Part shown: piece by piece, positions 8,296 through 35,192 of the stretch
Layout of the letters: the number at the start of each line of letters is the position of its first letter
Position numbering within the stretch: the stretch's first letter is position 1
IMG/VR virus record: IMGVR_UViG_3300044731_001604
Location: 93,573-157,572 of that record
From: a virus
DNA: 64,000 bases
Reading direction: 5' to 3' (one strand)
Made by a program: the position numbers and the translations under genes
The notes under the pieces: model-generated
Database searches by the model: none
What the model saw: only the letters and a program-made list of their open reading frames with translations
Told to the model about the DNA's origin: nothing

Positions 8296-9093
8296 TTACT
8301 TTTTTGAGGCAGTTTTTTTCTTAGCCTTGCTTTTAGTTTTCTTTGTATCTTCTTTTTTGGCAGCTTCTTCTTTCTTAGCAGCCTCTTCTTTTTTAATAGC
8401 CTCTGTTAAGCCATTAATAAGCCCTTGCTCTAATTTAGATTTTTCTTTCTGCTTTCTTTTTTTCAAAGCCTTTTGAGCTTTAGTTTGATATGGCAAAACG
8501 GTAGATAGATACATTTCACCAGGACTATAATTTAATCTAGGGATTGCAACGTGGTCAACTAAACCCAAAGTTTGAGCTTCTTGAGCAGTTACGGTCCAAT
8601 CAGTGTTATGTTTTGAATGGATCATTTTAGATAAGAACTCTGGTTTTTTACCCATATCTTCAGCTAGATTTTTAATCATTAACGAATTGATTGATTCATA
8701 AGTTTTTGCTGACTCTACGATATCGCTTGCTTTACCACCAGCCATACCAGATACTTGATGGATCATGATCTGAGCATCTTTTGATGCAAACCTAAATCCT
8801 TTAGTTCCTGCTGCTAATAATAATGCCCCACAGCTAAAAGCCATACCAACAGCAACTGTTGCAACTGGTTTGCTTGATGATTTAATTAAATCTCTCATTG
8901 CAGTCAAAGAGAATACTTCTCCACCATAGCTTGAAATATAGACGACTATAATCGGGATATGTGGATTTTTTTCTAATTCTGAAAATTGCTCATAAAATTG
9001 TACGGTAGCATCTTGGTCAAAATGCGTAACCCAAATTTCGTTGCTGTGTCTACCTGCGCCGCTGAGATCAATTATGTGTCCAGCATTTTTCAT
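8296..9093 (-). CDS. clpP: ClpP-like ATP-dependent Clp protease proteolytic subunit with a Lys-rich C-terminal tail
   Basis: YISSYGGEV, MAFSCGALLLAAG (Ser), IMIHQ (His), TDWTVTAQEAQTLGLVD (Asp). Confidence 0.9.
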   Translation of the reverse strand: MKNAGHIIDLSGAGRHSNEIWVTHFDQDATVQFYEQFSELEKNPHIPIIVVYISSYGGEVFSLTAMRDLIKSSSKPVATVAVGMAFSCGALLLAAGTKGFRFASKDAQIMIHQVSGMAGGKASDIVESAKTYESINSLMIKNLAEDMGKKPEFLSKMIHSKHNTDWTVTAQEAQTLGLVDHVAIPRLNYSPGEMYLSTVLPYQTKAQKALKKRKQKEKSKLEQGLINGLTEAIKKEEAAKKEEAAKKEDTKKTKSKAKKKTASKK

Positions 9094-16073: not shown

Positions 16074-16149
<76 letters not shown>

Positions 16150-16203: not shown

Positions 16204-17595
16204 TTAGAACAAGTTATCAATGATAACGTTCTTACGTGGTTGATATCCAGCTAAAGTCAAGAAACGGAAGTGAGCTTCAGTTTCAGAAAGTTCAGCTTGA
16301 GCAAGTTTCATACGGCTGTATGGGCTAAGCTCATGGAATCCCCATGTATCTTTTTGGATCATGTAACCAGTTACGAAACCTGGAGCTTTGTTTCCAAGGT
16401 CAGTAAATACTTGTGATGCAGAACCATCTGATTTCATTCTTCCGATGAATTTAGCAGTAGCTGCAGAGCTTCCTCTGTAAACGTTGTAATGAGTAGCACC
16501 AGCAACGCCAGCGATAGTCAAGTCAACTCTTTCACCAAGAGTAACAGTTACAGCAGCAGAAGCAGTAGCAACGCCTTCGCCACGTTCATTTTCAGCAGTA
16601 ACTAAATAGATATAGCTTCCTGCAGGGATGATAGCACCAGATCCTGTGTGAGCGCCAGAAACAGTAGCTGGAGCAGCAGGAGATCCGATCATTGGACGTA
16701 ATGGGCTAGTTTTTCCAGACAAGAAACGGCTATCTTCGATAGCAACAGTTCCGTTAGAAACCCATTGTCTACGGAGGTCGGCACCAGAAGCATCTTGTGC
16801 AGAACCAGCAAGCATAATTCTTTGGATGCTGTTAGCACCTGTTCCAAGAGCGATAGCTTTATTGTATCCAGAAAGGATAACAGGGTCAACATAAAGAGTT
16901 TCAGCTTTACCCATGTTCATGCGTGAACGAAGAGCAGCATCTTCAATAATAGGTTGATCTAAAGCACCATTTTTAGAAAGAACTACTGATTGGTTTGATC
17001 CGTAAGAAGCAAACATTAAATCTTGTGTAGAAACAAGAATATCAGACATACGGATGTGAGAATCAACACCCATCATGTTTGGAAGTTCAGGGATAGCATT
17101 TGGATTACCGTCGAAAACACCATTGTTAGAAAAGTGAGCTTTTCCACCGAAAGCGTCGAATTCGATATCAGCAGCAAGTTTGATAGCTGCGTTTTCTGCT
17201 TCTCTATCAGCAGCTTTTTTACCGTCAATAGTTTCCATCATGTTTGCAGCGATAGTTACACGCTCAATACAAGAATAGAAGCACATTGGAACAGTCGCTC
17301 TGATATAATCGCCAACATTAAGATCGCCTACTGCGCCTTCACGTTGAGCAGATCCGCCGAAGCGTCCATAAGAAAGCTGTCTGTTGAATTGAACCAACAA
17401 AGACTTAGCTTTTTTAACTGGGAAGAGCTTTTGTAATTTAATGTGACTATCATCAAATGTCACATTGTGCATTACAGGCTCAAGGTTTTCGATTTGGAGG
17501 GCAGAACCTTGAACAAGTTGCGAAGGAGCAACGTTGTAGTTTCCAGCCTCAAGAGTTTTGACCAGACCCTCTAGAGTCTTAACTAGGTCATTCAT
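16204..17595 (-). CDS. Major capsid protein (SPO1/Twort-like, HK97 fold)
   Basis: 463 aa. N-terminus LVK|TLEAGNYNVAPSQLVQGSALQIENL parallels the Twort-like VVK|SFQTGYGITPDTQ..AGALRRE. Also AADIEFDAFGG and an FN3-like insertion (YIYLVTAENERGEG...YNVYRG). Confidence 0.9.
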   Translation of the reverse strand: MNDLVKTLEGLVKTLEAGNYNVAPSQLVQGSALQIENLEPVMHNVTFDDSHIKLQKLFPVKKAKSLLVQFNRQLSYGRFGGSAQREGAVGDLNVGDYIRATVPMCFYSCIERVTIAANMMETIDGKKAADREAENAAIKLAADIEFDAFGGKAHFSNNGVFDGNPNAIPELPNMMGVDSHIRMSDILVSTQDLMFASYGSNQSVVLSKNGALDQPIIEDAALRSRMNMGKAETLYVDPVILSGYNKAIALGTGANSIQRIMLAGSAQDASGADLRRQWVSNGTVAIEDSRFLSGKTSPLRPMIGSPAAPATVSGAHTGSGAIIPAGSYIYLVTAENERGEGVATASAAVTVTLGERVDLTIAGVAGATHYNVYRGSSAATAKFIGRMKSDGSASQVFTDLGNKAPGFVTGYMIQKDTWGFHELSPYSRMKLAQAELSETEAHFRFLTLAGYQPRKNVIIDNLF

Positions 17596-18419
17596 TTATT
17601 ACCCCCTTTAGAGTTAATTAATTTTTCGATTTCTTGTTGACCTTCTCCGTATAAGAAGAAAGTGTTTATCATTTCACGTTCATTTTTTGTTAAAGAAGCG
17701 TTTCTGCTGAGCTTAGTAGCTTCAGCTTTAACTTCTTCTTTGCTTAATTGTTTATTGCTATTCATTTCTGATTTAGCAACAAATTGGATATCTGTAATTG
17801 ATTTTCTAGAAGGTTTAGCTAGAACTTCAAAAGCTTTAGTAATTTGAGCTAAAGCGTGAGCTTGTTCTTGAACTTGTTTTTCTAGAGCAATAATTTTTTC
17901 AGATTTTTCCATTTCATCTTGTTGTTCCGGTTGTTCTTGTTCTTCAGGTTGTGCAGGAGTTTCTTCAGGTTGCTCTTGTGGAGCAGCTTGTTGGTCCTCT
18001 TGTCCATAAGCACTTTGCAATGCTTGTCTGATTACAGAATAATGCCGTTCTAACTCTTGATGATCCATGCTACCATAAATTTGACTAAGCTCTTCATCAG
18101 TAAGAGGAGCATCTTCTTGCTCTTCTTCTAATTGTTGATCAGGTTGCTCTTCAGGTTGTTCTTCTGGTTGTTCTTCTGGTTGTTGTTCCTGTTCAGGTTG
18201 AGCTTCTTGCTCAGGTGCTTGTTCTTGCTCAGGAGCAGCCATTTCTGGTTGTTCTTCAGCAGGAGCTGGAGCAGCTTCCTCTTCAGGTTGAGCTTGATCT
18301 TCTTGTGGAGGCATATCATCTTTTCTTAACGAGCTTTTTGACAAAAAAGATGCTTTAGCAAGGACTTCATCAACCCCTGCAATCAATGCATCTAATTCGC
18401 TTTCGCTGTAATTTTTCAT
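17592..18419 (-). CDS. Capsid scaffolding protein (putative)
   Basis: Acidic E/Q/P repeats (EQPE) and a coiled coil; immediately upstream of MCP; several K|S motifs. Confidence 0.7.
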   Translation of the reverse strand: MKNYSESELDALIAGVDEVLAKASFLSKSSLRKDDMPPQEDQAQPEEEAAPAPAEEQPEMAAPEQEQAPEQEAQPEQEQQPEEQPEEQPEEQPDQQLEEEQEDAPLTDEELSQIYGSMDHQELERHYSVIRQALQSAYGQEDQQAAPQEQPEETPAQPEEQEQPEQQDEMEKSEKIIALEKQVQEQAHALAQITKAFEVLAKPSRKSITDIQFVAKSEMNSNKQLSKEEVKAEATKLSRNASLTKNEREMINTFFLYGEGQQEIEKLINSKGGNK

Positions 18420-19439: not shown

Positions 19440-22400
19440 CTATTCTTTTAGTTTAGGCTTTCTTGGCTTTTTTACTTTTGCAGTTTTTTCTTTAGCTTGA
19501 ACTGGCTCATCAGTTAAGCTTAAGGCCCAGCAATGAGTAGGCAGTCCTTTTTTTCTTGTTTCATTTAATGTATCTACACTTTTATGAGGATAGTCTGTAT
19601 AATCTACTTTTGTAAATCCATATTTTTGTGCTGTACCATCGTAAATATCTGTAATTCTTGGGTTAATAAAATCTTTATTATATTCTCTTAATTGGCCATT
19701 TACCATAGATCCGCCAGACATGTGGCTTCTAATTCCTGCTCCGTGCATATAAAGAGTTTTAACTCCTTGTGCTTTTGCGTTTTCTATAACTGTATTCATA
19801 CCAGCTTTTGACCATTCACCTAGTTGAGCATCAATCTTTTTGATATAATCTTTTATTTCTTTTGGAGAAAGTTTGTGACCATCAATTTCTAATCCATTAG
19901 GAGAGTTAGCCAAGATAGTTCTAATATTTTTTCTAAACTTTTGCGCAAAATCAGATTGAAATTCTTCTATAATCCAACCATCTTTATTAGAACTTGTATC
20001 AACTCTTGACCAAGCTACCATTTGTGGCGTAGTTGGGTGCAGCCCAATAGATGATTCTCTAATACCATTAGTTTCTTTTAAAACCATTTGATATAATGCC
20101 CACAATTTTGGATCTTGAGACATTTCTTTTTCAGACTTTTCGGAATTGTTTAATTGAAAAACTAATGATGGCTTATTTGCATGTTGTTGTAACTTTAAAT
20201 CAAAAATAGAATACGTCATGTGGTATTCTTTTGCCTTATCTTGTATCTCTGCTGATTGCATAGCATTTACAAAATCTTCTGGCACAACTGGTTTATTGTT
20301 TTTTGACATAAAAATATTTTTAATAACTTTGTTGTTTTCTAGTTCTGGGTTCATTTTTTTGAAATCTGCCCACATGATACCATCTGCAGGTACTTTATTC
20401 ATTGTATTTTGTAATACATCGACATCTTTATCATGAACCGACACAGATTTAACTAATTTTTCTTCGCTTATTGTTTTTTTAAATTCTGACGGTAAAGCTG
20501 GCGCGAACTTTCTCATTAAATATCCGCCCCAAGTTGGATTTGCAAATGCTGGATGATACTGTCTACTTGGCAAGAATACTACTTGTTTATCATTTGAAGT
20601 CTCTTCGTATAATCTTTCTACAGACTCTTTTGATAAATTTGGATGTTTTAACAATACCATTGCTAAACTACTTGATTCTTGTTTATTAAGATTGTTATAT
20701 CCACTTTTATGATTCTCTATTAAAATATTTGATATTTTATCTAATGAGGATACATCAGTTCTATAATTTCTTAATAACTTGTCAACAATTTCTGTTGATT
20801 TTAAATCTTTTTCCCAATTATTAACAATTTCATTTGAGTGTTTTTTGTCTATAAATAAAGACGATGCGTATACTTCGTCTACGCCACGCTCTTTTACGTA
20901 CGAGTCGGCCAGGTCTTGGCCGCCAACACCATATTGTAATGCTATTGCTTGCGTATTGTATTTTTGAGCATGATCAAGATCTTGAACTAGATCTTGAAAT
21001 TCACTATAAGATACTTTATCTCCAAGGGCTTTAAACGGTGCTGACAAATCTGGTGGAGTTACATCTGGATCTGTAAAAACGTTAACAACTTTAGACAGTA
21101 CACCTTTTCCGTATTTATCTAATGTGTTATCGTCCATTCTTCCAATCATTTTGACGGCAGAGTGTACGGCTGATTGCGGATCAGCTTCATAAGCTTTTTC
21201 AAATGAATAAGCTCCTAATACATTAGAGTTTAATTCTTGAACGCCATCTAAACAGAAGTTAAACTCTGGATGTTTTTCAAAATGTATTTGCCAATCTGAT
21301 AACTGAGCGTCTTTTGCTCTGTTAATTAACTTTTTGTAATCTCTTATGTCTACTGGATATGAAAGACTTATATCATATCCACCTTGTTTTGACATACTGA
21401 TTATATTGCTTATATGGTTTAAATCTTCATTGCTTATGTCTAAGCTTGAATAAGTAACATCTCTTAGCACTTCGCTTGCGATTTCTGCATTTTTTTTGAC
21501 ATCTTCTGGTTTGCTATTTTTTAAAATAGTGCCTAAATGTTTGTCTAAGCTTTCGTATACTTTGCTATATGTTTGTAATTTACTTTTAACATCAGTAGAG
21601 CTTTCGTCAAAGAAAGTTCCGCCAACAAATTTAGCTAGTGGTGTTAAATGTTTTTTAATTTCGGATAAATGTGACTCGCTAAGATATTCGCTTCCAAAGT
21701 ACGGAGATCCTTCGTCTTGTGGTACCATTAGCTTGTCTAATTCATCAATTTTAGATTCTACAAGCTGATGTAACGCTGTACTTAATGAATTTAATTTTTC
21801 TTTAATACCTGATTTAGATAAAGAGAATATAACGCCTATTTGAGCAGAGTACACGTTGTGTGGTATTGACCTTCCAAGTTTTGCTAGAGACTCTGGGGAA
21901 ACAACTGGGTTCGTAGATAAATCACCAAATGCAGTTATTCTGTCACTTTCATTTATTTCATTATCTAAAAATAATCTATTAGTAACTACATCTATATTTT
22001 GTTTTGTCAATTTCCCAAAATTTTCTGAGTCAGACAGGAACTTTCTTAGCTTATGCCCTGTTATATTTTCCAAAATATCTGGATTGTTTGTATCTAAATT
22101 TCCATATTCGATATTATTAGCTATCTCTGGTGTATTTGGTAAATTTTTAAATATACTTGTCTTTTCTTCTTTAGGAATCTTTGAGTATAGCATTTTTGCT
22201 AGACTTTTATTAGCATATTCAGATGTAATAGGGTCTTCGCTAAGAGTGTGCTTTTTAAGAAAATTTGTAATACTTTGTAATTTTGACTGATCTTCAGTGT
22301 GCGCTTGAGAAAGTCTAGTAAAAAGGTTTTTTTGCTTGTCATAATCTTTATGTTGATCTATACTTTTTTGGGCTTCTTTATCTAAAGTATTAACGAAAGT

Positions 22401-25400
22401 TTCTGCTAATTTTTGATTAGAATCATCATGTCCTATGGAAGTAGCACCTGATAAAAGCGTACCAGATCCGAAAGATTCTGGGGACGTTTGTAACATATTA
22501 ATCAAATGTTTATTATATGTTGATGGTAGAATTTTTTTATCTATCATATCGTATAACAAATCTCCATTTTTATTTGAGATTGTGCTATCTACCATTTTTT
22601 TGGCCAAATCTTTTACTTGTTTTACTGGTCCTAAGCTTTCGTAAACTTTTTTAAAAAATCTATCTTTTAGGGCGTTAAGCCCTTCGTTCGACCAATTTTG
22701 TAAATTGTTAATTTTTTCAAACAATGGATTGATTAAATTTGGTAATATTTTTTTTGTGTTACTATCTAAATCAGTGTCAAATAGTTTAGTTATATAGAAT
22801 GCTTTATCATCATCTGCAACATGATCAAAAAAGTTTAACATATCGTTAGATACTTCTTCATGATCATTGTTAAATTTATGATTATAAAGATACATATCTG
22901 GTTGAAATTGGTTTACAGCAGCTTCAAAATCAGGTTGAGATAGGCTTTTACCTTTAACAGAATTAAGAATGTAATCCATTTTTTTAGAATGTTCTATTGA
23001 ATCTAATTTTTCCGTAAAGCTTTTTTTACTTTCTAATTCTGCTTTTTTCTCTTCAGATAACAAACCATCTTTTAGTAAAATCCGATTTAGTTCGTTTCCT
23101 TGTTCTGATCCACTAGAATCAACTAAATCATCAAATACTTTTCCAGCCTTATTAGCGACTCTTGTGGATGCTCTGCTATATAGTATGTCTTTCCATGTTT
23201 TTGTAATATAATCCTGTTTTTCTTGTGGATTTTCTATTTTATCTGCATGTGATTTAATAAAATCTTTTAAATTAGATACAACACCTTGAAGTTTATCTGC
23301 TCCAGAATGTTCATTTTCAAGCAAATGCTCTATTGCGGCAGTTGTTCCAATAGACTCTACTTTATCTTCTGGTACAATATTAAGGATATTTTTATGTTTT
23401 TTAAAATCTCGATCTAGACTTGATATTATACTATTAGATTTACTATCTTCTGAATTCTTAATTGTATCTTTTAAAATTGAGACATGAGATTTATTTGAGG
23501 GGCTCATACCGCTTATAACTGATTTTTCTAAATTCCCTAAAATATGTCTAGGTTTCATGTCTTCCGGAAGAAGATCGTTATAGTGACCAGATAGTATTTT
23601 TTTATTTTCTTCATGGTTGTTTAAATCGTGTGGATTAAAATAGTATTTTCCACCAGTTACTAAGTCATGTTTTTCTGGTGGAGTTAATTTATCCCAAAGC
23701 TCATTTTTTACTTTTTCTGGAGTATTTTTTGTCGCTATTATTAGCGGCGCAGCTCCTCCATTTGAGATTTCTAATAAATCGTTAATATTTTTTTCTTTTT
23801 CAGAATCGCTCATGTCTTCAAACTTATCTGAGAGCCAAGTTTGATTTTCGTTATTTTTTGATCCCCAGTCATGAGTATCAAGAACACCAGGATAGTCTTT
23901 AACTATTTTTTTAACAGTACCCATTGATGAATAGTCATTGTGTATTAATTTCCATGCGTCAGACGAATATTTATCTGGCATTCCATATTGATCATATATT
24001 TGTGTATTATTTTCTTTATTTGCTTTATCTGCATCATAAAGCTTGTCTAAGAAACTTGCCGATGTCCTAGATTTACTATCTAGTAGATCTTTAGTTAATC
24101 CTGGGTGTTGTAAAGCAAAATCCTCTGCTTTTTTATTGCCATTTGATATTAAGTCTTTTACTGATTGTTTTAAATCTAACTTGTGTTCCTGTGAAGAATA
24201 GTACCCAGATCTTGGGTCATTTCCACTATATATGCTCATGTTTTTTGGATGAGACTCAGAAAACATTTGTAAAAGATCATCCGTATTTGAATCTCTTTCA
24301 TCTTGTGATAGTTCTGGGCTTTTAATTAAATCAAGTTTATTTTGAACAACATCACTTAAGCTTTGCTTGCTTTTTTTGGAAATTTCTTCTAGATCTGTTC
24401 CTTTAAGCTTTTCATGCATGGTTCTTAGAGATAGGTGCTTATCTTCTGGCGACATTTTGTCCCAAGCTTCCATAGCCTTACTATCTTTCCACATGTCATG
24501 TAGATTTCTTTTTCCTTGCTTAAATTCATTTGTATATATATCATGTCCAGCTAGTGGGTGCTGTTTGGCTGCTTCGTATACATCTAAAGCTTTTCTTTTT
24601 AATGCAGTGTCAACTACATCTTTATTAACATTTTTATGTTTCAATGCATCTATTGCGATATTTTTACTTTTATGATTAACAATTTCTTTTAAAACATCGG
24701 GTGGTAAATTTTTATAGCCAAGCATTTTTCTTGCTGCGTCGGTATCTTTACTGCTTAAATCCCAAGCTTTTTTAATTGAATCTGGATTCGTATTTTTATG
24801 ACCTAAGAATTCTTTGTGGCCATTAGACACCAGTTTATCTATTTGGTCTGGCGATAAATTTTCATTAAGATTTAGGGCCTCTTTTTCGTGCCAATCTAAT
24901 TCTGGTTTTTCTACTACGGAGCTTAAAACTTCATTTGGCAAATTTGAATGCCCTAATGCGTGTCTCAATAAGCTTCTTTTATTATGATCTGATTCTTCTG
25001 AATTATAAGTCTTAACAATTTTTCCTAAAAGCGTCGGATCGGCATTTTTATGGGAAACAATGGAGCTAATCGTGTTTGGATAATCTTTTGATGAACTTTC
25101 ATAAACATTGTGTAATCTATTTAATTGATCTTTTGATAAATCATTGTTACCTATAAAATCAGACACAAGATCATCAGAATCAATTGTGCTAGACGGATTA
25201 GTTGGGGCGTTAAATCCATATATTGGGCCCTTTTCAAAAATTTTTACGCCTCTTTCAATTGAATCAGGTGTGTGATGCTTTGTTGTTGCATAACCAAGAC
25301 GAACTATTTCATCTTCGTTGTCTGTTTTTGCATTAGGCTCATCTTCTGTGTGATTTTTTCTATTGTTTAATAAATTTTCGTAGAACTCTGGCGTTAAATT

Positions 25401-25790
25401 TTTAACAGGTGGTCTTGATCCGTATGTTTCATTAATATATTTATTGGCTCTATCTTCAAGAACTTTTGTGTCAACATTTGGGTGTACGCTTGCCCCTTTT
25501 GACCTGTAAGCTGTATCGTTCATAGCAATATGGTTAACTACATCTGACGGTGTATTTGGATTATTAAGCATGCCATCAACAATTGAGTTGATCTCATGTT
25601 CTCCTACTTTTGGAGCAATATGGTTATATAATTTAGAGATAGACTCTTTTGGCGCATTCGCATGTTCTGCAATATCAGACATAAAAGCATGATCGTATAT
25701 GGTTTTATCCTCATGCGGAGTATTAATATAATTTTCAACATGAGAATTTAGAACATCTGATGGCGTATCTGTAGTTAATTCTTTGCTCAT
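19440..25790 (-). CDS. Giant (2116 aa) putative internal virion protein: N-terminal LRV-like helical repeats and a C-terminal EExQSD domain
   Basis: Repeated NPNTP/HPNVD/HKNAD/HSNLP/HKNTN/YKNLP/HKNVN units. C-terminus has HP...VAWSRVD...WIIEEFQSDF...AKAQGVKTLYM...IYD...KYGF. Confidence 0.65.
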   Translation of the reverse strand: MSKELTTDTPSDVLNSHVENYINTPHEDKTIYDHAFMSDIAEHANAPKESISKLYNHIAPKVGEHEINSIVDGMLNNPNTPSDVVNHIAMNDTAYRSKGASVHPNVDTKVLEDRANKYINETYGSRPPVKNLTPEFYENLLNNRKNHTEDEPNAKTDNEDEIVRLGYATTKHHTPDSIERGVKIFEKGPIYGFNAPTNPSSTIDSDDLVSDFIGNNDLSKDQLNRLHNVYESSSKDYPNTISSIVSHKNADPTLLGKIVKTYNSEESDHNKRSLLRHALGHSNLPNEVLSSVVEKPELDWHEKEALNLNENLSPDQIDKLVSNGHKEFLGHKNTNPDSIKKAWDLSSKDTDAARKMLGYKNLPPDVLKEIVNHKSKNIAIDALKHKNVNKDVVDTALKRKALDVYEAAKQHPLAGHDIYTNEFKQGKRNLHDMWKDSKAMEAWDKMSPEDKHLSLRTMHEKLKGTDLEEISKKSKQSLSDVVQNKLDLIKSPELSQDERDSNTDDLLQMFSESHPKNMSIYSGNDPRSGYYSSQEHKLDLKQSVKDLISNGNKKAEDFALQHPGLTKDLLDSKSRTSASFLDKLYDADKANKENNTQIYDQYGMPDKYSSDAWKLIHNDYSSMGTVKKIVKDYPGVLDTHDWGSKNNENQTWLSDKFEDMSDSEKEKNINDLLEISNGGAAPLIIATKNTPEKVKNELWDKLTPPEKHDLVTGGKYYFNPHDLNNHEENKKILSGHYNDLLPEDMKPRHILGNLEKSVISGMSPSNKSHVSILKDTIKNSEDSKSNSIISSLDRDFKKHKNILNIVPEDKVESIGTTAAIEHLLENEHSGADKLQGVVSNLKDFIKSHADKIENPQEKQDYITKTWKDILYSRASTRVANKAGKVFDDLVDSSGSEQGNELNRILLKDGLLSEEKKAELESKKSFTEKLDSIEHSKKMDYILNSVKGKSLSQPDFEAAVNQFQPDMYLYNHKFNNDHEEVSNDMLNFFDHVADDDKAFYITKLFDTDLDSNTKKILPNLINPLFEKINNLQNWSNEGLNALKDRFFKKVYESLGPVKQVKDLAKKMVDSTISNKNGDLLYDMIDKKILPSTYNKHLINMLQTSPESFGSGTLLSGATSIGHDDSNQKLAETFVNTLDKEAQKSIDQHKDYDKQKNLFTRLSQAHTEDQSKLQSITNFLKKHTLSEDPITSEYANKSLAKMLYSKIPKEEKTSIFKNLPNTPEIANNIEYGNLDTNNPDILENITGHKLRKFLSDSENFGKLTKQNIDVVTNRLFLDNEINESDRITAFGDLSTNPVVSPESLAKLGRSIPHNVYSAQIGVIFSLSKSGIKEKLNSLSTALHQLVESKIDELDKLMVPQDEGSPYFGSEYLSESHLSEIKKHLTPLAKFVGGTFFDESSTDVKSKLQTYSKVYESLDKHLGTILKNSKPEDVKKNAEIASEVLRDVTYSSLDISNEDLNHISNIISMSKQGGYDISLSYPVDIRDYKKLINRAKDAQLSDWQIHFEKHPEFNFCLDGVQELNSNVLGAYSFEKAYEADPQSAVHSAVKMIGRMDDNTLDKYGKGVLSKVVNVFTDPDVTPPDLSAPFKALGDKVSYSEFQDLVQDLDHAQKYNTQAIALQYGVGGQDLADSYVKERGVDEVYASSLFIDKKHSNEIVNNWEKDLKSTEIVDKLLRNYRTDVSSLDKISNILIENHKSGYNNLNKQESSSLAMVLLKHPNLSKESVERLYEETSNDKQVVFLPSRQYHPAFANPTWGGYLMRKFAPALPSEFKKTISEEKLVKSVSVHDKDVDVLQNTMNKVPADGIMWADFKKMNPELENNKVIKNIFMSKNNKPVVPEDFVNAMQSAEIQDKAKEYHMTYSIFDLKLQQHANKPSLVFQLNNSEKSEKEMSQDPKLWALYQMVLKETNGIRESSIGLHPTTPQMVAWSRVDTSSNKDGWIIEEFQSDFAQKFRKNIRTILANSPNGLEIDGHKLSPKEIKDYIKKIDAQLGEWSKAGMNTVIENAKAQGVKTLYMHGAGIRSHMSGGSMVNGQLREYNKDFINPRITDIYDGTAQKYGFTKVDYTDYPHKSVDTLNETRKKGLPTHCWALSLTDEPVQAKEKTAKVKKPRKPKLKE

Positions 25791-26452
25791 ACTCTACTCC
25801 CCTTTTTAAGATTATCAGCGGCCCACAGCGGTTGTAAATTAGTATAATGACACAATTTAATCATATCTTCTGGTGTTTTTGCCGAGCTTAATGGAACAAT
25901 GTGATCTACATGCCAACCATTACTTGACCAATTTTCCCAAGTCATACCTGGTTGAAATTTTGACTCTAAATAATTTTTTAAAAAATCACTAGTACATCCA
26001 ATATCTTTTATTGCTGATCCAATTTTTTTATATCCAGTTGCCTTTAAAAAATTATTAAGTCTTGCCCTTAGAGTTTTTGCTAATCTATACATAATATCTT
26101 TTTCTTTTCTAATTCTATGTATCTCTCTGCGTCTTTCAAGAACTTTTGGATGATTCTGCTTTAATTTTCTAAGTATTGGATTTTCTCTATCTCTCTTTTT
26201 TTTATTTTTTTCTCTAGACAGTTTAGGATTTTCCCAATACCTATCTCTGTATCTTTTTCTTTCTGACTCTAAATTTTTAAGTCTCCAAATTCTTGAATAT
26301 TCTCTAGCTTTTTCTCTGTTATTTGAATTTTTCAAATTTTGTCTTAAATTAATACACTTTTTACACTGAGAAACGCGGCCACTTTTTTTATGTTTGTCCT
26401 TAGAAAACTCACTTTCATTTTTTTCAATTTTACACTTGGTACAAGTCTTCAT
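25787..26452 (-). mobile_element. Free-standing HNH homing endonuclease
   Basis: N-terminal CTKC/CKKC; C-terminal WHVDHIVPLS...HYTNLQPLWAADNLKKG. Confidence 0.85.
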
Positions 26453-27066
26453 TGGTCCAACCTAGATGGACTGGACCCATACTTCATTTTATATAAAATT
26501 CGTTTTACGTAGTTAGGAGATTCAGCGCCGCGATAATCCCCTGACTCAATTTCATAGTCATATTCTGGTGTGCTTAATTTCCCAGCTTCAATCGCTTGTT
26601 TTTGTTCTTTTCTAATGTTATCTAAAGCAGCTTTGGATATAAAGTTTTTTTCTTGTTTTCTTTCTGTAGGTTTAATAGACGGCATAATTGGGTAAGGTTG
26701 CGTTCCATCAGTTTTTCTAGTTACAGATATTTCTCCACGCTTAATTGCTGCAAATAACGCATCTTTTTCTTCTGGATCTAACATTTTACCATTTAAGATA
26801 CAAGTGTGCCCGTCAGAAGATATCTCAGCTACGTCACCGTTGCTTAAAATATATCTAAACATTGTTATGGAAGATTTGGTAGGTTCTTCCAAAGAAAGGT
26901 GGGACGATGCAGATACTTTTCTAGAAAGCTCTTTAAAAGAATTATTAGCCATTTTTGGCACAAAGCCATTAGAATTATCAACTATAAATTCAATCTGGTC
27001 TCCCTCAACTCTAATTTCAGCTAATGGTACTTTAGATTGCGTGGATTTTACTACATAGATTTTCAT
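26449..27066 (-). CDS. Hypothetical head-module protein
   Basis: 205 aa, coupled to the protease gene. Confidence 0.55.
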   Translation of the reverse strand: MKIYVVKSTQSKVPLAEIRVEGDQIEFIVDNSNGFVPKMANNSFKELSRKVSASSHLSLEEPTKSSITMFRYILSNGDVAEISSDGHTCILNGKMLDPEEKDALFAAIKRGEISVTRKTDGTQPYPIMPSIKPTERKQEKNFISKAALDNIRKEQKQAIEAGKLSTPEYDYEIESGDYRGAESPNYVKRILYKMKYGSSPSRLDQ

Positions 27067-28733
27067 TTGTCATCTCCTGGCAATAAAAGACTTTTTTGAT
27101 TAATTGTGTCACTTACAGCTTGGGCTCTGTCCCATGCGTTTTGCATAGTGATCGGTCTTTTAGAGTCTGCCTGATATGATTTTAACACACCTAGAGACTT
27201 TTGTATAGTTTTTTTATCAAAACCATGATGTTTCATGCGTAAAGCCAATACTTTAGGGTCAACGCTTTGAATCCATTTAGATGCTTCTGGGTGTATTGCT
27301 GAACTATCATTTTCTAAATAATCTGGCTTCATATACACATGGCTAAAAGCATAATCATTATCAATATTTAAAAGATGCCCGTCTGGATGAATTAAAACAT
27401 TACCAAGGTGTCTGTCGCTATTTTGAAGAACGTGGTCTAATATCGCTAATTTATGCAGACTTCCATCTTCCGTAGCTTTTTTATGCGCATTGTCCCAAGC
27501 TTCTTGGGACTCTAGTGGAGTTTTAGACCCCTTGATATACTCCACTGCTTGAGTTGAAAGCCCACCATGTACTTCTGGGTGCTTAATGGCTGCAGTTGTA
27601 GGAACATGTTTTTCCATGCCAAATACATTTCTTGCAATATCAGAATAGTGTGAGGCATTGTGATTTTGAGATTCCTGATTTTCGCCCATTGATAAACTGC
27701 TTGGGCCTTTTAAAAATACATCTTGCCCATTGTCGTTTCTTAAAATATGTAATTGTTTATCTGGACGGTATGAATCATGTCCAGGTGAGAATTTTTGCTT
27801 ATTATCAAAATACAAACCTTCAACCAAGTTTTTTTGATCATGATTTGCATTAATATGAGAATGAGTTTGATTAATTCTAGTTAACTTAGGCTCGCCTTTT
27901 TTTAGAGCAAGGTCTTCAGCAACATCAGCAAAGTGTTCTATATAAGTATCAGATATTTCAGGAAGAGCCGCCTTAAGAACTTCTTTAAGTGGTCTTTTTC
28001 TGTCCCAATCTCTAATTGCCGCTTTGATTTTATTCTTATTGGTTTTATTAACTATTTGTTCTCTAACTAAAGCTGCGCCGCCTGTAAGTTGTCCTGGTGC
28101 GACATTACCCATTCCGGCTTCTAGAGTTTTATTAAGCTCGTCAATAGCCTTTTTCATATCAGTAAAGTCTATTGCATCATCAGATAGAACGATTGAGTCG
28201 ATTGTTACTGTTGAAATTGATGAGCTTTCAAATTTTTTAACGATCTCTTCTGATTCTTTGTCAGTCATAACATCAATCCAGCATTGCTTATTACATGGAG
28301 TTAATGTGATCGCTACCTTTTTCATCATAGCTCTTTTAAGGATATTGCCATCTCGCTCAAGAGTCACGCCTTCGATTGAGGCTCCAACTTGGATTGGTTC
28401 TTTTTTATTATGAAAGTAACGAATCATTGCTGCAATTGCCAAAGCTCCATGGTGTTCTTCTTCATCAAAAAGCTCAAGTGCCCCATAGATAAACGGAACT
28501 TTTACTTGATCCCAGAATTTACGTTGACGATCAGTTTCACAATCGCCCTTTTTTAAAATTTTTTTTGCATATTTAAATACGCCAATTGCTGCAACTTCAG
28601 GAGAGTCGTTTTTGTGTTCAAAATTGGCAAACACTTGCCCTTTTTCAACAAGAGATATGTCTACGTTTTCAATTAATAGCGATTCGCCACTAGAATCAAT
28701 AGCTTGTGTCGCAATAGGCATGTCTATTATCAT
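27063..28733 (-). CDS. Prohead maturation protease fused to a C-terminal PI3/4-kinase-like domain
   Basis: N-terminal DSSGE, NFEH and GASIEG...KVAITLTPCN (HK97/Twort-type protease). C-terminal VFLKG...LDHVLQNSDRHLGNVLI...LNIDNDYAF. Confidence 0.8.
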   Translation of the reverse strand: MIIDMPIATQAIDSSGESLLIENVDISLVEKGQVFANFEHKNDSPEVAAIGVFKYAKKILKKGDCETDRQRKFWDQVKVPFIYGALELFDEEEHHGALAIAAMIRYFHNKKEPIQVGASIEGVTLERDGNILKRAMMKKVAITLTPCNKQCWIDVMTDKESEEIVKKFESSSISTVTIDSIVLSDDAIDFTDMKKAIDELNKTLEAGMGNVAPGQLTGGAALVREQIVNKTNKNKIKAAIRDWDRKRPLKEVLKAALPEISDTYIEHFADVAEDLALKKGEPKLTRINQTHSHINANHDQKNLVEGLYFDNKQKFSPGHDSYRPDKQLHILRNDNGQDVFLKGPSSLSMGENQESQNHNASHYSDIARNVFGMEKHVPTTAAIKHPEVHGGLSTQAVEYIKGSKTPLESQEAWDNAHKKATEDGSLHKLAILDHVLQNSDRHLGNVLIHPDGHLLNIDNDYAFSHVYMKPDYLENDSSAIHPEASKWIQSVDPKVLALRMKHHGFDKKTIQKSLGVLKSYQADSKRPITMQNAWDRAQAVSDTINQKSLLLPGDDK

Positions 28734-29313: not shown

Positions 29314-30192
29314 CTAGTGATTGCATCCTTCGTGACATTGATGCGGATTTTCTAAATTTTGTGACCATTCTAAGTATTCGTCATAATCCATAAATTGCTC
29401 TGCTTTGATTAATCGTTCACCTGTAGGCTCTTCAGATTTATGTACGCTATAGTATTCAGAGTAATAATCATGCGTAAATGATTTAAAGTCAGAAATACCT
29501 TGTTCATTAAAAGTAAAACCTGGGGCAACCATGGTCATAGTGTGTCTGCAGTTGGGGTGAGCGCCGTCAAATGGAGTTTTACCATCCCATAACTTTGGCT
29601 TAAAATATCCATGTGCTAATTGTGATAATTTATATGGTCTTGGTTTTCTAATATTGTTAGGATCATGGTACATCTGTTTGCAATATTTGCAAATTTTATC
29701 ATCCACCACTCCACGAAAAACTATGGTTGGATCAGATACGCCAATATCACTTGCGACTCTGGCGATACCTTCTCGGTTTGCATAGGCAATGACACTTCTA
29801 GTTTCGTTTCCTGTCAACATTTCGACATATTTACTAGCTTTATCAAAATGATCTTTAACTGATGCCATTGCTTCTTTGTGATCTTTGGCTGCTAAAATAG
29901 CGTTTAATATATGATTTTTAACTTTAAGCTTTTGAGAATCAAAATAATTGCCCGTTATTTCCGCTAAATTTTCTATAGTTTTTTGATCTGGTCTAATACC
30001 GGCACCATACATCATAGCTAATGCCCAAGTATACAAACCTTCAATGCTATCTAATGGATCTGATTGCCCTAATACTTCAAAAATAATATGAGGTCCCTTG
30101 AAATATCTTCCAAGAAGTCTAGCTTTTGTTGTTTCAAAAAGCTTTTCAATTCTTTGTAGAATAGTTTTTCTTTGAGAATCACTTAATTTCAT
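29314..30192 (-). CDS. MuF/SPP1 gp7-like minor head protein
   Basis: DDKICKYC and HPNCRH motifs; directly downstream of the portal gene. Confidence 0.75.
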   Translation of the reverse strand: MKLSDSQRKTILQRIEKLFETTKARLLGRYFKGPHIIFEVLGQSDPLDSIEGLYTWALAMMYGAGIRPDQKTIENLAEITGNYFDSQKLKVKNHILNAILAAKDHKEAMASVKDHFDKASKYVEMLTGNETRSVIAYANREGIARVASDIGVSDPTIVFRGVVDDKICKYCKQMYHDPNNIRKPRPYKLSQLAHGYFKPKLWDGKTPFDGAHPNCRHTMTMVAPGFTFNEQGISDFKSFTHDYYSEYYSVHKSEEPTGERLIKAEQFMDYDEYLEWSQNLENPHQCHEGCNH

Positions 30193-30222: not shown

Positions 30223-32265
30223 TTAATCTTTTTTATCTTTTAAGATTTTAGACATTTCTTCTAAAGCCTTTTTAGACTCTTCTTTCCACTTATCCATATG
30301 ATTATTAACTAATTCTTTGTGTCTTCTTAGTAATTGTCTAGTAAGAGAATTGTGATTATTTTTTAAAGATTTATCTAGTGCCGCATAGTTAACTAATTGA
30401 AACTCTGTTTTTTGCATTTGATCTTGTTCGCCATCCTGTTGTTCTTCTTGTTGTCCATCTTGCTGCTCTTCTGGTTGTCCTTGCGCCATCATTGCTTGTT
30501 GCTGCATTTGTTGTTGCATCATCATCTGTTGTTGCATTGCAGCCTGTGCTTTTTGTAAATCCATTTGTGCTTTTTGGAAATAAAACGGATCTCTTACGTA
30601 ATTCCATCTAGGGTCTTGAGCCGCACCTTTGATTTTAAAGAAATTCTCTAGTATAACACCAACCGGAACATATTTATCTAAAATTTGTTGATATTGAGGA
30701 TTCATTGGCAAATCTGCACCAAGTTCAGTTGGTACTAAGTTCTTTTCTACTGCCTTCATAATATCATTATATGACATATGAACGGCCATATCTTGTTGCA
30801 ATCTAGTGTTTTCTTTTTCCGGAGAATCTTTTTCTAATCCAGTCAAAACTATTTGATGTGTTTTTGCTAATTCTGGGTCAATTTTAGGAAGAATGTGAGT
30901 ATTAAGGAAATCTTGAAAATCATACAAAAGAGGTCTGATACCGATATCTCTTGCAGCATTTAATTTCCACTCATTATCACTTTCGCCCAAAGCTTGTGTG
31001 TTTGTTCCTCTAGCTAAATATCCCATTGAAGGAACTTCTTCTGGGGACATTTGGAATGCTGATAATATAACCCTGGCATTATTATCCATTAGATACTGGA
31101 ATTCAGCATCTCTTCCGCCTTGATCCATTTGCTGCCAAGATATTTCATCTTCTTGGCCAACAGCAAATACTGGAGTTCTCCAACTATTGCTTACAGAATT
31201 GATTGATTGCTGAAATTGTAGTCTTGTTCTTTGTAACATTGCTTCATCGGCAGAATCTGATTTAAAAATTAACATACCCTTAGCAGCACGTCCATTTTGG
31301 AAGTAAAGCTTATTATGCATAGTTATGTTAATATGCGTAGTAATGGCATTTAATGCTTGATCAATTGGAGTAAGTGGGTAGCCATTGTGTTCAATATTTG
31401 TTGTTGGGTATAAATTGTATACAACTAATTCTTCTTCAGTAAAAGCTTGCACTGGCTTAAGATCGACAACTTGAACATATCTATATTCATCTTTTGTGTA
31501 TTTTTCTACATCAATTTTTTTGTTTTTTAATTGCTGTAATTGTCTTAAAGCTTCTCTTCTTAAAGATTGGTCTTGTTCTTTTTGTGGCAACATTTTATAA
31601 ATTGTGCCAGCATCAGCAGCTCTCCATGCATACAATTCTTTTTGAGCAGTCTTTGGGTTTATATGCCAGATAAACTCTGTAGCAAATCTTCCATAAGCAA
31701 CGCCATCTCTAGTAGATAGTTTTAAGAACTGAGACAAATTCATTCTATCAGTCTCTTCGTCTAGAGTTCCTTTGCCACAATTCCAGAGCATTTTTTTAAC
31801 TTTTTCTATTTTTTCTTGAAGTATCTTTTGTTCTTCTGGACTTCTGACGGCATTTTTGTCCATGTCTTGAACGTCAAAACCATTTGAAAATCTATCAATT
31901 CTAGGTCTACCAAAAGAAGATACATGATTTGATCTGATTTGCAAAATTTGATTAACTAATTCGTCTCCACCTGGGCCTGTAATCTTTTTAATGATTGAAT
32001 CTGGAGTTAAATTTTGCTTAAGCTTATAGAAACCCATCGCACCTTGATAATTTGCGTGAGGATCTACTTCAAAAGCCATTCTTTCAACTTGATTAATACT
32101 TTGCTGATTAATTGATTTAACTATTTGACCTAAAATGCCATATGGTTCATTTTTAGAACCTAAAGCTTCTGCTTCTTCAGCCTTTTTCAATTCAGAAATA
32201 GCAACTGGATCAATTGCTATAACTGGCTGGGCTTTCTTTTTTTCGGTTTTCTTTAAATCAGACAC
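30223..32265 (-). CDS. Portal protein (SPO1/Twort-like)
   Basis: GYPLTPIDQAL, YFQNGRAAKGML, NSWRTPV, DAEFQ, AFQMSPEE, GIRPLL; Q/M-rich C-terminal extension. Confidence 0.88.
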   Translation of the reverse strand: MSDLKKTEKKKAQPVIAIDPVAISELKKAEEAEALGSKNEPYGILGQIVKSINQQSINQVERMAFEVDPHANYQGAMGFYKLKQNLTPDSIIKKITGPGGDELVNQILQIRSNHVSSFGRPRIDRFSNGFDVQDMDKNAVRSPEEQKILQEKIEKVKKMLWNCGKGTLDEETDRMNLSQFLKLSTRDGVAYGRFATEFIWHINPKTAQKELYAWRAADAGTIYKMLPQKEQDQSLRREALRQLQQLKNKKIDVEKYTKDEYRYVQVVDLKPVQAFTEEELVVYNLYPTTNIEHNGYPLTPIDQALNAITTHINITMHNKLYFQNGRAAKGMLIFKSDSADEAMLQRTRLQFQQSINSVSNSWRTPVFAVGQEDEISWQQMDQGGRDAEFQYLMDNNARVILSAFQMSPEEVPSMGYLARGTNTQALGESDNEWKLNAARDIGIRPLLYDFQDFLNTHILPKIDPELAKTHQIVLTGLEKDSPEKENTRLQQDMAVHMSYNDIMKAVEKNLVPTELGADLPMNPQYQQILDKYVPVGVILENFFKIKGAAQDPRWNYVRDPFYFQKAQMDLQKAQAAMQQQMMMQQQMQQQAMMAQGQPEEQQDGQQEEQQDGEQDQMQKTEFQLVNYAALDKSLKNNHNSLTRQLLRRHKELVNNHMDKWKEESKKALEEMSKILKDKKD

Positions 32266-33326: not shown

Positions 33327-35192
33327 TTAATCTGTATCGTCTGACCCAAAATCCCATATTATTAGGCCATCTGAAGATTTACCTTTTGATTCAAAACCCT
33401 GACCGTCTGTCAATTCTCTAACCTTTTGACTTAGCCAGTCTGGATATTGTTTATTATAAATATCTGCTGGTGGAGGTTGCGACGGCGCAGCAGATAGCTT
33501 ACCTTTGGCTTTGAACATGTTTTGAGCAGCATACCTTAAGGCATCTGCTATATCTGCAACTTCTGAATCATCTGGCTCTTGTGTTAAATCTCCAAGTGTA
33601 TCTAATTTAAATGAATGTTCTGCAAACATAGACATAAGAATTTTAGTTCTTGCGTGTTTAACAACTTTCAACTTGCGAATACCCTTTGCATTTATAATTT
33701 GCCCACGAACAGCTTCTATACCGCCCCTAACATCTTTTTTAAAGTCTGAACAAACCATTCCGTTTTTTCTAAATGTTTTAATAAACATAGGTTCAGCAGT
33801 ATCAAGATGCCATCTTGTTGGTTTGTACATTGCCTTAATTTTAAGTGCTAGGTCTAATATCTCGTCGAATTCTAATCCAGGAATAGAGTAGGCATCGACT
33901 AGCCACCATTCTTGACTTGGTAACAACGCTGTTACAACAAATGCTTGGGCATGGGCATGACCCCAGTCGCCGCCAACTTGAAACTTAACTCCAGCTTCAA
34001 TCATTTTTTGTACCAGATCTTCTATTTCAATATCTTTGTGCATTGTTGTGCCAGTATATCGCTCCCAAGCTTGTTTCAATGTATACGTATTACCAGATCC
34101 GTCATCTTTATCTAAGAACCTTGGGTATACCATACCTTGAGAACTTGGCTTCCAGCACATTAACTGAGCTTCTGCTAAATCTGGGTCGGTTTTAGCAAAC
34201 TGACTGATGACGAAATCAATTGGTTTCCACAATCCACCAACATCTTTCTCACTTCTGTTTGCCAACCGACCCCTGCAAACTGGGGCAAGTTTACAAGTTG
34301 CACATCCACCCATCACTGTTATCTCGTCGTAATTCTCTTGTACTTTTGTTTGTAATCTACCGTATCCTTCTTTATCTAAAGTTTCTAGTGGCAAATTTTT
34401 GTTTACATATATAGTTTTATGAGGCAAATCTGGTCTATGTCTTTCTGGTTGGCATTTTTCTGTGATATCAATTATGTTCCAGCGATACACATTCCAATTA
34501 TTTTCTACGGCCTTTTCCATTTCTTTACTAAACAGTCCTCCAGGAAACTTCATGGTAGAAGTCTTAATTGTTAATGGGTGCTGTCCGTTAAATACACCTG
34601 GAATAAATTCTGCTTCTTTAAACGCTCTAATTCCCTCTGCGCTTCTAATAGTATCTACTTCATCTACGCATAACAAATTTGAATGCGAGCTATTAGCTCC
34701 TGTTATAGTAGCAACAACAATTTTCATCCAAGACGAACTACCGTCTTTGTTTTTAATAGTAATTTCTTTGCTGTTTTGTGTATTTAAAAACATTCCATGG
34801 TGTTCTAAGTACGGAGCCATTTTAGTTAAAAAGGTATTTGTATAACTTTTTGCTGCTGTAGCTTGCGGAACGATGGCAGCCATGTGACATATTGTGGCTC
34901 CAAAGTGAGCCATCAAAATCACGGAAAGTATTGATTCGGTTAAGGTTTTATAACTTTCTCTTGAAGAAATTGTAATTACAGACGGTGATTTCCAACTTTC
35001 ATTTTTTCTATACATGTCATATACATCATACATCCATTCAATAGGACTAGAATTTGAATCTGGATCTATAGATGAATCTGGTAAATCAAGTCCGAGGAAA
35101 TTGTGTACCCAATTTTTCAAATGTTCTTTGTCATGAAATTTCACGAGAAATGTTTTTGCTAAATTTTCATCAAATTTAAAGTCTACACTCAT
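33327..35192 (-). CDS. terL: Terminase large subunit
   Basis: SRESYKT Walker A variant, LCVDEVD Walker B, GGDWG nuclease motif I, DIADALRY. Confidence 0.88.
   Translation of the reverse strand: MSVDFKFDENLAKTFLVKFHDKEHLKNWVHNFLGLDLPDSSIDPDSNSSPIEWMYDVYDMYRKNESWKSPSVITISSRESYKTLTESILSVILMAHFGATICHMAAIVPQATAAKSYTNTFLTKMAPYLEHHGMFLNTQNSKEITIKNKDGSSSWMKIVVATITGANSSHSNLLCVDEVDTIRSAEGIRAFKEAEFIPGVFNGQHPLTIKTSTMKFPGGLFSKEMEKAVENNWNVYRWNIIDITEKCQPERHRPDLPHKTIYVNKNLPLETLDKEGYGRLQTKVQENYDEITVMGGCATCKLAPVCRGRLANRSEKDVGGLWKPIDFVISQFAKTDPDLAEAQLMCWKPSSQGMVYPRFLDKDDGSGNTYTLKQAWERYTGTTMHKDIEIEDLVQKMIEAGVKFQVGGDWGHAHAQAFVVTALLPSQEWWLVDAYSIPGLEFDEILDLALKIKAMYKPTRWHLDTAEPMFIKTFRKNGMVCSDFKKDVRGGIEAVRGQIINAKGIRKLKVVKHARTKILMSMFAEHSFKLDTLGDLTQEPDDSEVADIADALRYAAQNMFKAKGKLSAAPSQPPPADIYNKQYPDWLSQKVRELTDGQGFESKGKSSDGLIIWDFGSDDTD

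Follow-up and report, generated by a model that had tools for sequence, protein, structure and literature searches.

A phage head-maturation protease fused to a kinase resembling type II phosphatidylinositol 4-kinases, and a possible route for the kinase into the capsid

Why would a phage join the protease that matures its head to a kinase? The question is raised by one gene in the head module of an uncultured virus represented by a 157,572-bp IMG/VR record (IMGVR_UViG_3300044731_001604; estimated completeness 98%). We analysed the right-hand 64 kb of this record (64,000 nucleotides, G+C about 34%), called the window below, in which all features described here lie on the minus strand. The gene at positions 27063-28733, stop codon included, is an uninterrupted open reading frame (ORF) with a strong Shine-Dalgarno sequence upstream of its ATG, and its translation of 556 amino acids consists of a protease, a linker and a kinase. 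An earlier note made from the DNA letters had described positions 27063-27900, encoding residues 278-556 and the stop, as a prohead protease fused to a kinase-like domain. The motifs that it quoted are all present in the translation (ALKK↓G at residues 276-280, VFLK at 339-342, LDHVLQNSDRHLGNVLI at 432-448 and IDNDYAF at 457-463, with the arrow marking the proposed cut).

The explanation toward which we lean, by a narrow balance, is that the maturation protease carries a kinase related in fold to type II phosphatidylinositol 4-kinases (PI4K II) into the capsid, cuts it free and delivers it to the next host. The evidence comes from the identity and conservation of the two domains, from a segment between them that copies the N-terminus of the major capsid protein (MCP), from a conserved cleavage-like motif, and from the exchange of the C-terminal domain among relatives. 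We also found a downstream gene whose product may bear on how the kinase is controlled. The MCP-like segment, a candidate cut within it (LNK202↓T) and the downstream gene were not part of the earlier description.

The protease and kinase domains

Conservation was counted in 72 full-length fused homologues that are 37-50% identical to the window protein. An AlphaFold model of the fusion built from these homologues had a mean predicted local distance difference test (pLDDT) score of 85.5 and exceeded 90 over most of residues 290-550. The N-terminal domain (residues 1-170; 28224-28733) was assigned from fold, tblastn and conservation, and the claim that it is a prohead protease was borne out. In structural alignments with VIA-align, the source of all Z scores given here, this domain matched T4 gp21 (5jbl) with a Z of 10.6 and a root-mean-square deviation (rmsd) of 2.4 Å over 118 of 165 amino acids, and it matched the herpesvirus proteases of varicella-zoster virus (Z 9.2) and human cytomegalovirus (Z 7.1). 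Nearly all of the best rows in a Foldseek search of the N-terminal model against the PDB were herpesvirus proteases, none reaching an E value of 0.001. Using tblastn we found matches to SPO1 gp3.2 and other Herelleviridae proteases (E down to 3e-7) and also recovered the protease of Myxococcus phage Mx1, the closest cultured relative of the window phage. The PHROG family phrog_1028 matched at E 2.4e-6. Searches of the PDB sequences with the single sequence and with the full-length profile gave no protease match, and the kinase matches that they gave were weak and restricted to a loop.

Two residues of the protease, His40 and Ser119, are found in 72 of 72 homologues, and His94 is found in 70. 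The gene lies between the portal and MuF genes on one side and the scaffold and MCP genes on the other, matching the arrangement in SPO1. The window protease, whose invariant His40 and Ser119 are putative catalytic residues, has the assemblin fold of T4 gp21 and SPO1 gp3.2 and their position in the head module, and the window protein has about 330 additional residues that include an enzyme. A nested start at Met193, which aligns with Met1 of the MCP in three genomes, was rejected; it has no Shine-Dalgarno sequence, and Met occurs there in one of the 72 homologues.

The window also contains a gene for a ClpP-family serine protease (8296-9093; PF00574, 116.9 bits) that matches "head maturation protease" PHROGs at E 6e-31, and some phages do use ClpP-family proteases for head maturation. 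Were this protein the maturation protease, the gp21-like domain would serve for self-processing only or be a relic. We regard this as very unlikely because the ClpP gene lies with tail and DNA-metabolism genes and not in the head module, because the gp21-like gene occupies the canonical place and its His and Ser are invariant, and because the cut-site motif of the gp21-like protein, described below, marks both the MCP and the scaffold. True ClpP and a second maturation protease are both candidates for the product of 8296-9093.

The C-terminal domain (residues 280-556; 27066-27896) was assigned from Pfam, fold and profile comparisons. It scored 43.4 bits against PF00454 (PI3_PI4_kinase; cut-off 27.1, E 5e-11), with positions 121-180 of the 241 profile positions aligned. 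All top Foldseek matches in the PDB were PI3K/PI4K-type or other atypical kinases such as RIO2 and PRPK (E about 1e-6 to 1e-5), so that the predicted structure is kinase-like, as had been proposed. Structural alignment placed the type II PI4Ks first, with PI4K IIβ at Z 18.4 and rmsd 3.4 Å over 234 amino acids, PI4K IIα at Z 17.4-17.8, and matches to the type II enzymes spanning 234-243 amino acids. CtkA of Helicobacter pylori ranked next (Z 13.6, rmsd 3.5 Å, 207 amino acids), followed at Z 10-12 (11.8 at most) by mTOR, ATM, Fam20C, PI4K IIIβ, actin-fragmin kinase and Legionella LepB.

The residues expected of a working kinase are largely kept. The VFLK strand (27708-27719; strand 338-342 in the model) holds the putative ATP-binding Lys342, assigned from its position and conservation and preceded by a loop with invariant D334 and G336. 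The catalytic loop D440-R-H-L-G-N445 (27399-27416) aligns to the G-D-R-H-x-x-N loop of PI3K, PI4K and mTOR, and the putative metal-binding Asp of I-D458-N-D-Y-A-F (27345-27365), equivalent to that of the DFG motif, aligns to the Asp of the PI3Kα I-D-F-G motif. A profile of kinase-only relatives also aligned the PI3Kα G-D-R-H-x-x-N loop and I-D-x-G Asp (E 2e-5). Among the 72 homologues, Lys342 is kept in 64, Asp440 in 65, Arg441 in 70, His442 in 63, Asn445 in 67 and Asp458 in all 72. The few pseudokinase relatives that lack the Lys lack the catalytic Asp as well, as would be expected were the remaining homologues working enzymes. Sequence, fold and conservation thus agree with the earlier claim of a kinase-like domain with intact D-R-H-x-x-N and metal-binding Asp, and judged from its residues the domain is complete and apparently active. 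That the N-terminal domain is a gp21/assemblin-fold protease and the C-terminal domain a PI4K-type kinase is, in our view, close to certain.

A comparison with PI3_PI4_kinase, HipA_C and CtkA had also been proposed, and here the outcome was divided. PF00454 matched and CtkA was the second-best fold, whereas no Pfam match of the window protein to HipA_C or HipA_2 (PF07804, PF20613) was found at E values up to 1. Pfam HipA_2 is present in some relatives (P0105) and in one nearby Atlas cluster. The window locus also differs from HipA in that it is not a HipBA-type toxin-antitoxin operon.

It might be argued that the C-terminal domain is dead filler, or a scaffold-like core protein degraded at maturation. 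Protease-scaffold fusions are known from other phages, lambda C/Nu3 being one, and a few relatives (L008, L018) are without catalytic residues. We give this idea hardly any weight because, despite the low overall identity, 64-72 of the 72 homologues retain each of the catalytic residues (Lys, Asp, Asn and Asp), a distinct scaffold gene is present, and the Lys motif described below is not concentrated within the kinase domain.

The likeness to type II PI4Ks raises the question of whether the domain is a true lipid kinase that phosphorylates phosphatidylinositol or another host membrane lipid at entry. The window kinase shares with the human IIα and IIβ enzymes (PDB 4pla, 4yc4, 4wtv, 9hhm) a bilobal fold over about 240 residues (rmsd 3.4-3.8 Å), a D-R-x-x-x-N loop and a metal-binding Asp of the I-D-N type, and its putative ATP-binding Lys lies on a β-strand. 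These enzymes lead clearly over the next family in structural comparison, and the domain belongs to PF00454. However, the window kinase is only 11-13% identical to them, is viral and fused to a capsid protease, and aligns to about 240 of the approximately 355 residues of the PI4K II catalytic region, being about 100 residues shorter. The membrane anchor of PI4K II is a palmitoylated Cys-rich segment, whereas residues 280-556 contain no cysteine and thus no such anchor. Phosphatidylinositol is absent from most bacteria and is, unlike for type II PI4K, an unlikely substrate there, and the next structures in rank (CtkA, mTOR/ATM, Fam20C, actin-fragmin kinase) are protein kinases. A lipid kinase is for these reasons quite improbable. 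CtkA, which has the same superfold as the window kinase, is a secreted bacterial protein kinase.

The window encodes a second PI3/4-kinase-like protein of 587 amino acids (4808-6571; PF00454, 38.1 bits, cut-off 27.1), whose gene has a virion structural gene on one side and a tail-fibre-like gene on the other. An L-H-K...D-R-H-x-G-N...I-D block is common to this protein and the fused kinase; the protease domain and the capsid-like segment are absent from it.

The capsid-like segment and the candidate cuts

Between protease and kinase lie two further elements. Residues 192-227 (28053-28160) matched residues 3-38 of the phage's own MCP (17482-17589) in BLASTP, with 19 of 36 positions identical (E 3e-6). 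Within the window, the pattern K-T-L-E-A-G-x-x-N-V-A-P-x-Q-L-x-x-G-x-A-L occurs in the MCP and the fusion protein only. The same pairing of protease and MCP segments was found in eight of eight genomes examined, including Mx1. In SPO1, the gp3.2 protease, which carries no cargo, likewise ends with a copy of the N-terminal segment of its MCP: residues 161-202 of gp3.2 match residues 15-56 of the major head protein (L011; 3926-4696 and 5460-6866). Given its presence in SPO1, the segment is an old feature of the protease family, ancestral to the SPO1-type and Mx1-type proteins, and cargo was added beyond it. Protease segment and MCP N-terminus co-varied across seven genomes (permutation p 0.006), a result confounded by relatedness. 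From residue 206 onward the models show the segment as disordered. Next comes a three-helix module (residues 228-279; 27897-28052; helices 230-241, 249-256 and 262-278 in both models) with many near-invariant residues and only generic helical-bundle structural matches (Z about 5).

A candidate cleavage motif, consisting of a hydrophobic residue, any residue and Lys followed by a small residue, stands at both ends of this region. The first site, L-N-K202↓T203 (28125-28136), aligns with the site L-V-K13↓T of the MCP; L200, K202 and a Thr, Ser or Ala at 203 were each found in 71 of 72 homologues. The second, L277-K-K279↓G280 (27894-27905), is the ALKK↓G site of the earlier note and stands at a domain boundary. 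L277 and K279 are kept in 72 of 72 homologues, and residue 280 is Gly, Ser, Asn or Ala in 71.

The motif is also found in the proteins that a maturation protease would process. At K13 of the MCP it is kept in five of five MCPs. The probable scaffold protein (275 amino acids; 17592-18419; in the same position as SPO1 gp3.3) has five occurrences against 0.7 expected, and its hydrophobic-x-K-S-(E/D) sites at K28, K172, K216 and K245 are each kept in 5-6 of 7 orthologues. These four conserved scaffold sites suggest, at the level of sequence, that the prohead protease is Lys-specific. Enrichment was also observed in the portal (10 against 3.1 expected) and the fusion protein (10 against 3.5). No enrichment was found in the terminase, the second kinase or a giant 2116-amino-acid protein, in which 11 occurrences compare with 13.6 expected.

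The ALKK↓G site is plausible as a cut site, given the invariance of the motif there, its retention at the MCP N-terminus and its enrichment in the scaffold. That the protease cuts its own chain at both Lys sites is a reading we hold to be slightly better than even. Such cuts would yield a protease of 202 amino acids, a piece of 77 amino acids that would start exactly as the presumed mature capsid protein does, and a kinase of 277 amino acids (31 kDa). The inferred cut after Lys distinguishes the window protease from the characterised gp21-type proteases of T4, phiKZ and SPN3US, which cleave after Glu (PMC5694885). We also considered a T4-like Glu-type cut after E225, where the similarity to the MCP fades in this genome, and retained it as no more than an alternative, because in SPO1 the similarity runs past the Glu and because MCP and scaffold lend the Lys motif independent support. 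Should cleavage be Lys-specific as proposed, the specificities of gp21-type proteases would be broader than known.

Exchange of the C-terminal module and the downstream gene

Two protein searches gave 171 relatives of the protease, the majority encoded on contigs 130-200 kb long. The kinase domain is present in 144, following directly in 75, after about 150 inserted residues in 22 and after 600-900 inserted residues in 47. The "putative prohead protease" of Mx1 (1239 amino acids) is of this long form with the kinase C-terminal, and the middle region of about 600 amino acids in long-form relatives has no counterpart in the window. Of the remaining 27, some stop after the linker and others continue with GGDEF (P0138, for example, at 60 bits), GNAT (such as P0072, which barely passes the cut-off) or sequence without assignment, and a DUF5661 variant was found beyond the boundary as well. 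In all alternative architectures, resemblance to the window protein ends between residues 273 and 290, at L277-K-K279. Relatives therefore do carry swappable C-terminal domains, as the earlier note had anticipated, and the second candidate cut is also the point of exchange.

GGDEF/nucleotide-cyclase sequences occur in two forms. They follow the protease-kinase gene as separate genes in long-form relatives including Mx1 (L004, 13698-14927; L007, 14005-16098; L001, 16127-16858) and are fused to the protease in others (L003), suggesting gene fusion and fission at this locus. Two long-form proteins of about 1570 amino acids (P0143, P0166) have an extra middle insert of about 350 amino acids that starts with C-L-D and ends in a block that by eye resembles an intein or homing-endonuclease element. 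Five ORFs of 377-410 amino acids (P0173, P0175, P0182, P0189, P0194) begin right past the protease domain (M-G-V-I/P-E/D...) and consist of the capsid-like segment, linker and kinase only; these may be split-gene forms or gene-calling artefacts. The kinase domain alone was found in 390 representative clusters at E values up to 0.001, either stand-alone or at the ends of very long proteins. In BFVD, similar full-length fusions bear automatic annotation only, and the kinase domain also occurs attached to MuF-type proteins and in one haloarchaeal virus.

Immediately after the protease-kinase gene comes a gene of no known family that encodes 205 amino acids (26449-27066) and whose start overlaps the kinase stop by 4 nucleotides. 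We located members of its family in the window, at four loci reached through protease homologues and on eight viral contigs (one or more of these contigs repeat a locus already counted), and all of those found sit directly downstream of short-form protease-kinase genes. A model of the kinase in complex with the 205-amino-acid protein gave a median ipSAE of 0.63 compared with 0.13 for the best control. This is above the tool's mark, a level that 58 of 80 solved complexes and 2 of 110 mismatched pairs attained; this calibration applies only approximately here because we supplied our own alignments. Two of three runs scored high, with contact agreement of at least 0% and partner pLDDT of at least 59. 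The modelled contacts on the kinase are K342, D440, H442-N445, I457-D458 and D460, which form the catalytic cleft, and those on the partner include residues 50-59 with a Ser-Ser-His loop. At loci with an intact kinase the loop reads S-S-H (in one, S-H-H), and at the two loci without kinase catalytic residues it reads S-T-S and N-K-H, an association with a Fisher p of about 0.055 among loci that are not phylogenetically independent. The model indicates that the 205-amino-acid protein probably binds the catalytic cleft, as inhibitor or substrate.

This partner opens the possibility that the kinase acts in the producing cell or procapsid on phage proteins, such as the 205-amino-acid neighbour, the scaffold or other head proteins, and so regulates assembly or its timing. 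The modelled placement of the partner over K342, D440-N445 and D458, the adjoining and overlapping genes, and the altered loop at both loci with catalytic loss would all suit such a role. We nevertheless find it unlikely. GGDEF and GNAT domains in the same position in relatives fit host-directed effectors better, in long-form genomes, Mx1 among them, the kinase is present although no homologue of the partner was detected nearby, and SPO1-type heads assemble without a kinase.

We also put forward, as a tentative idea that is on balance doubtful, that the protease-borne kinase and the 205-amino-acid protein are a dedicated pair, the latter an antitoxin-like plug of the cleft that is later separated, and that the protease is a general carrier of enzymes. 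The small protein would then plug the cleft in the producing cell much as an antitoxin does, packaging and cleavage would part the two, and an unrestrained kinase would enter the next host. The maturation protease of Mx1-like phages would on the same idea be a carrier for an interchangeable kinase, c-di-GMP cyclase or acetyltransferase, and the kinase fold, familiar mainly from lipid kinases of eukaryotes, would have undergone a large radiation in phages.

The surrounding head module has the order large terminase, portal, MuF-like protein, protease-kinase, scaffold and MCP, with further genes between protease-kinase and scaffold; this order is shared with SPO1 and Mx1, and the head gene order is identical to that of Mx1. 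The large terminase (TerL; 33327-35192) is followed by a gene for a 324-amino-acid protein, the portal (30223-32265; PF04860 and portal PHROGs), the MuF-like minor head protein (29314-30192) and two small ORFs that precede the protease-kinase gene. Beyond the 205-amino-acid gene are an endonuclease VII/HNH-type gene (25787-26452; phrog_1035, E 4.5e-19), the giant 2116-amino-acid protein (19440-25790; no Pfam or PHROG match), two small genes, the scaffold and the MCP (16204-17595; phrog_752, E 5.6e-34). Counterparts of the giant protein in relatives are 1972-2205 amino acids long and hold the same position. In relatives, GIY-YIG or Endonuclease_7 genes are found at different points of the head module, a scatter that mobile homing endonucleases would be expected to show. 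A tRNA-Ala (TGC) gene (16074-16149) lies immediately downstream of the capsid gene.

A proposed route into the next host

How might the kinase reach a host? In the explanation that we prefer, the protease would, like other gp21-type proteases, co-assemble into the procapsid core and bring the kinase along, and the MCP-like segment would help to target it there. Every head would receive the kinase at a copy number like that of the protease; gp21 is present at roughly 55-100 copies in the T4 procapsid core (PMC9958956, PMC5694885). Once the shell is complete, the protease would cleave at the Lys motif, in the scaffold and the MCP as well as in its own chain, and the compact freed kinase would stay in the head with the DNA, then be ejected. 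By analogy with the loading of T4 proteins, we consider it likely that the kinase is encapsidated by way of the protease. Delivery of the freed kinase to the next host is a possibility to which we give somewhat less than an even chance. Inside the new host the kinase would most likely phosphorylate proteins rather than phosphatidylinositol, since this lipid is rare in bacteria and, apart from lipid kinases, the closest relatives of the window kinase (CtkA, PIKKs, Fam20C, actin-fragmin kinase) phosphorylate proteins, and its role would be in early host takeover or counter-defence.

Parts of this route resemble known systems. T4 packages IPI-III and Alt, which are tagged with a capsid targeting sequence (CTS) and trimmed by gp21 (PMC9958956, PMC5694885), and head-packaged Alt and IPI are injected (PMC9958956). 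Loading into the procapsid core, trimming by the protease and injection with the DNA are the route that we propose for the window kinase, with the difference that T4 cargo has a short N-terminal tag and its own gene, whereas the window cargo is covalently joined to the protease. Polyvalent proteins are multidomain and deliver swappable effectors (kinase, GNAT and others) with the DNA, and the window family exchanges its modules in a similar manner. They include assemblin-like peptidases, at their C-termini only, and their kinase family is different (Iyer et al. 2017, PMC5512222), whereas the window fusion has its protease at the N-terminus and a PI4K II-like kinase. The T7 kinase gp0.7 (T7K) phosphorylates a broad range of host proteins and disables defences (PMC13645617). 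Like the window kinase in its proposed role, it comes from a phage and acts as infection begins, but it belongs to another kinase family, is the product of an early gene and is not virion-associated. Literature searches on protease-kinase fusions, Mx1 virion proteins, PI3/4-kinase domains in virions and HSTV-2 found nothing relevant.

Several observations weigh against this explanation. The gp21-type precedent is cleavage after Glu, the argument for Lys specificity is drawn from motif conservation and enrichment only, and E225, which lies in the disordered loop and offers an alternative site, is kept in 69 of 72 homologues. The closest solved structures to the kinase are lipid kinases, and the window encodes the ClpP-family protease (8296-9093) in addition. 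With respect to the partner, no member of the 205-amino-acid family was found within 10 kb of the long-form gene in Mx1, L003, L004 or L007, one of the three complex runs scored 0, and the Ser-Ser-His loop is not invariant.

Capsid-loaded effector proteins are an already known kind, and phage proteins injected with DNA include T4 IPI and Alt, the N4 RNA polymerase and P1 Dar. To our knowledge, the choice and loading of cargo are understood for very few of them. New here are the protease as carrier, the defined swap junction, the PI4K II-like cargo and the candidate cleft-binding partner. The fold of this cargo, best known from eukaryotic lipid kinases, is present in at least 390 representative metagenome clusters, and we know of none that has been studied. 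Mx1 can be cultivated and has the same fusion, which makes packaging, cleavage, substrate and a role in counter-defence directly testable. The maturation protease appears to be a loading vehicle with a conserved junction at which enzymes are exchanged, and this carrier route would be a simple, modular way of delivering enzymes at the first second of infection.

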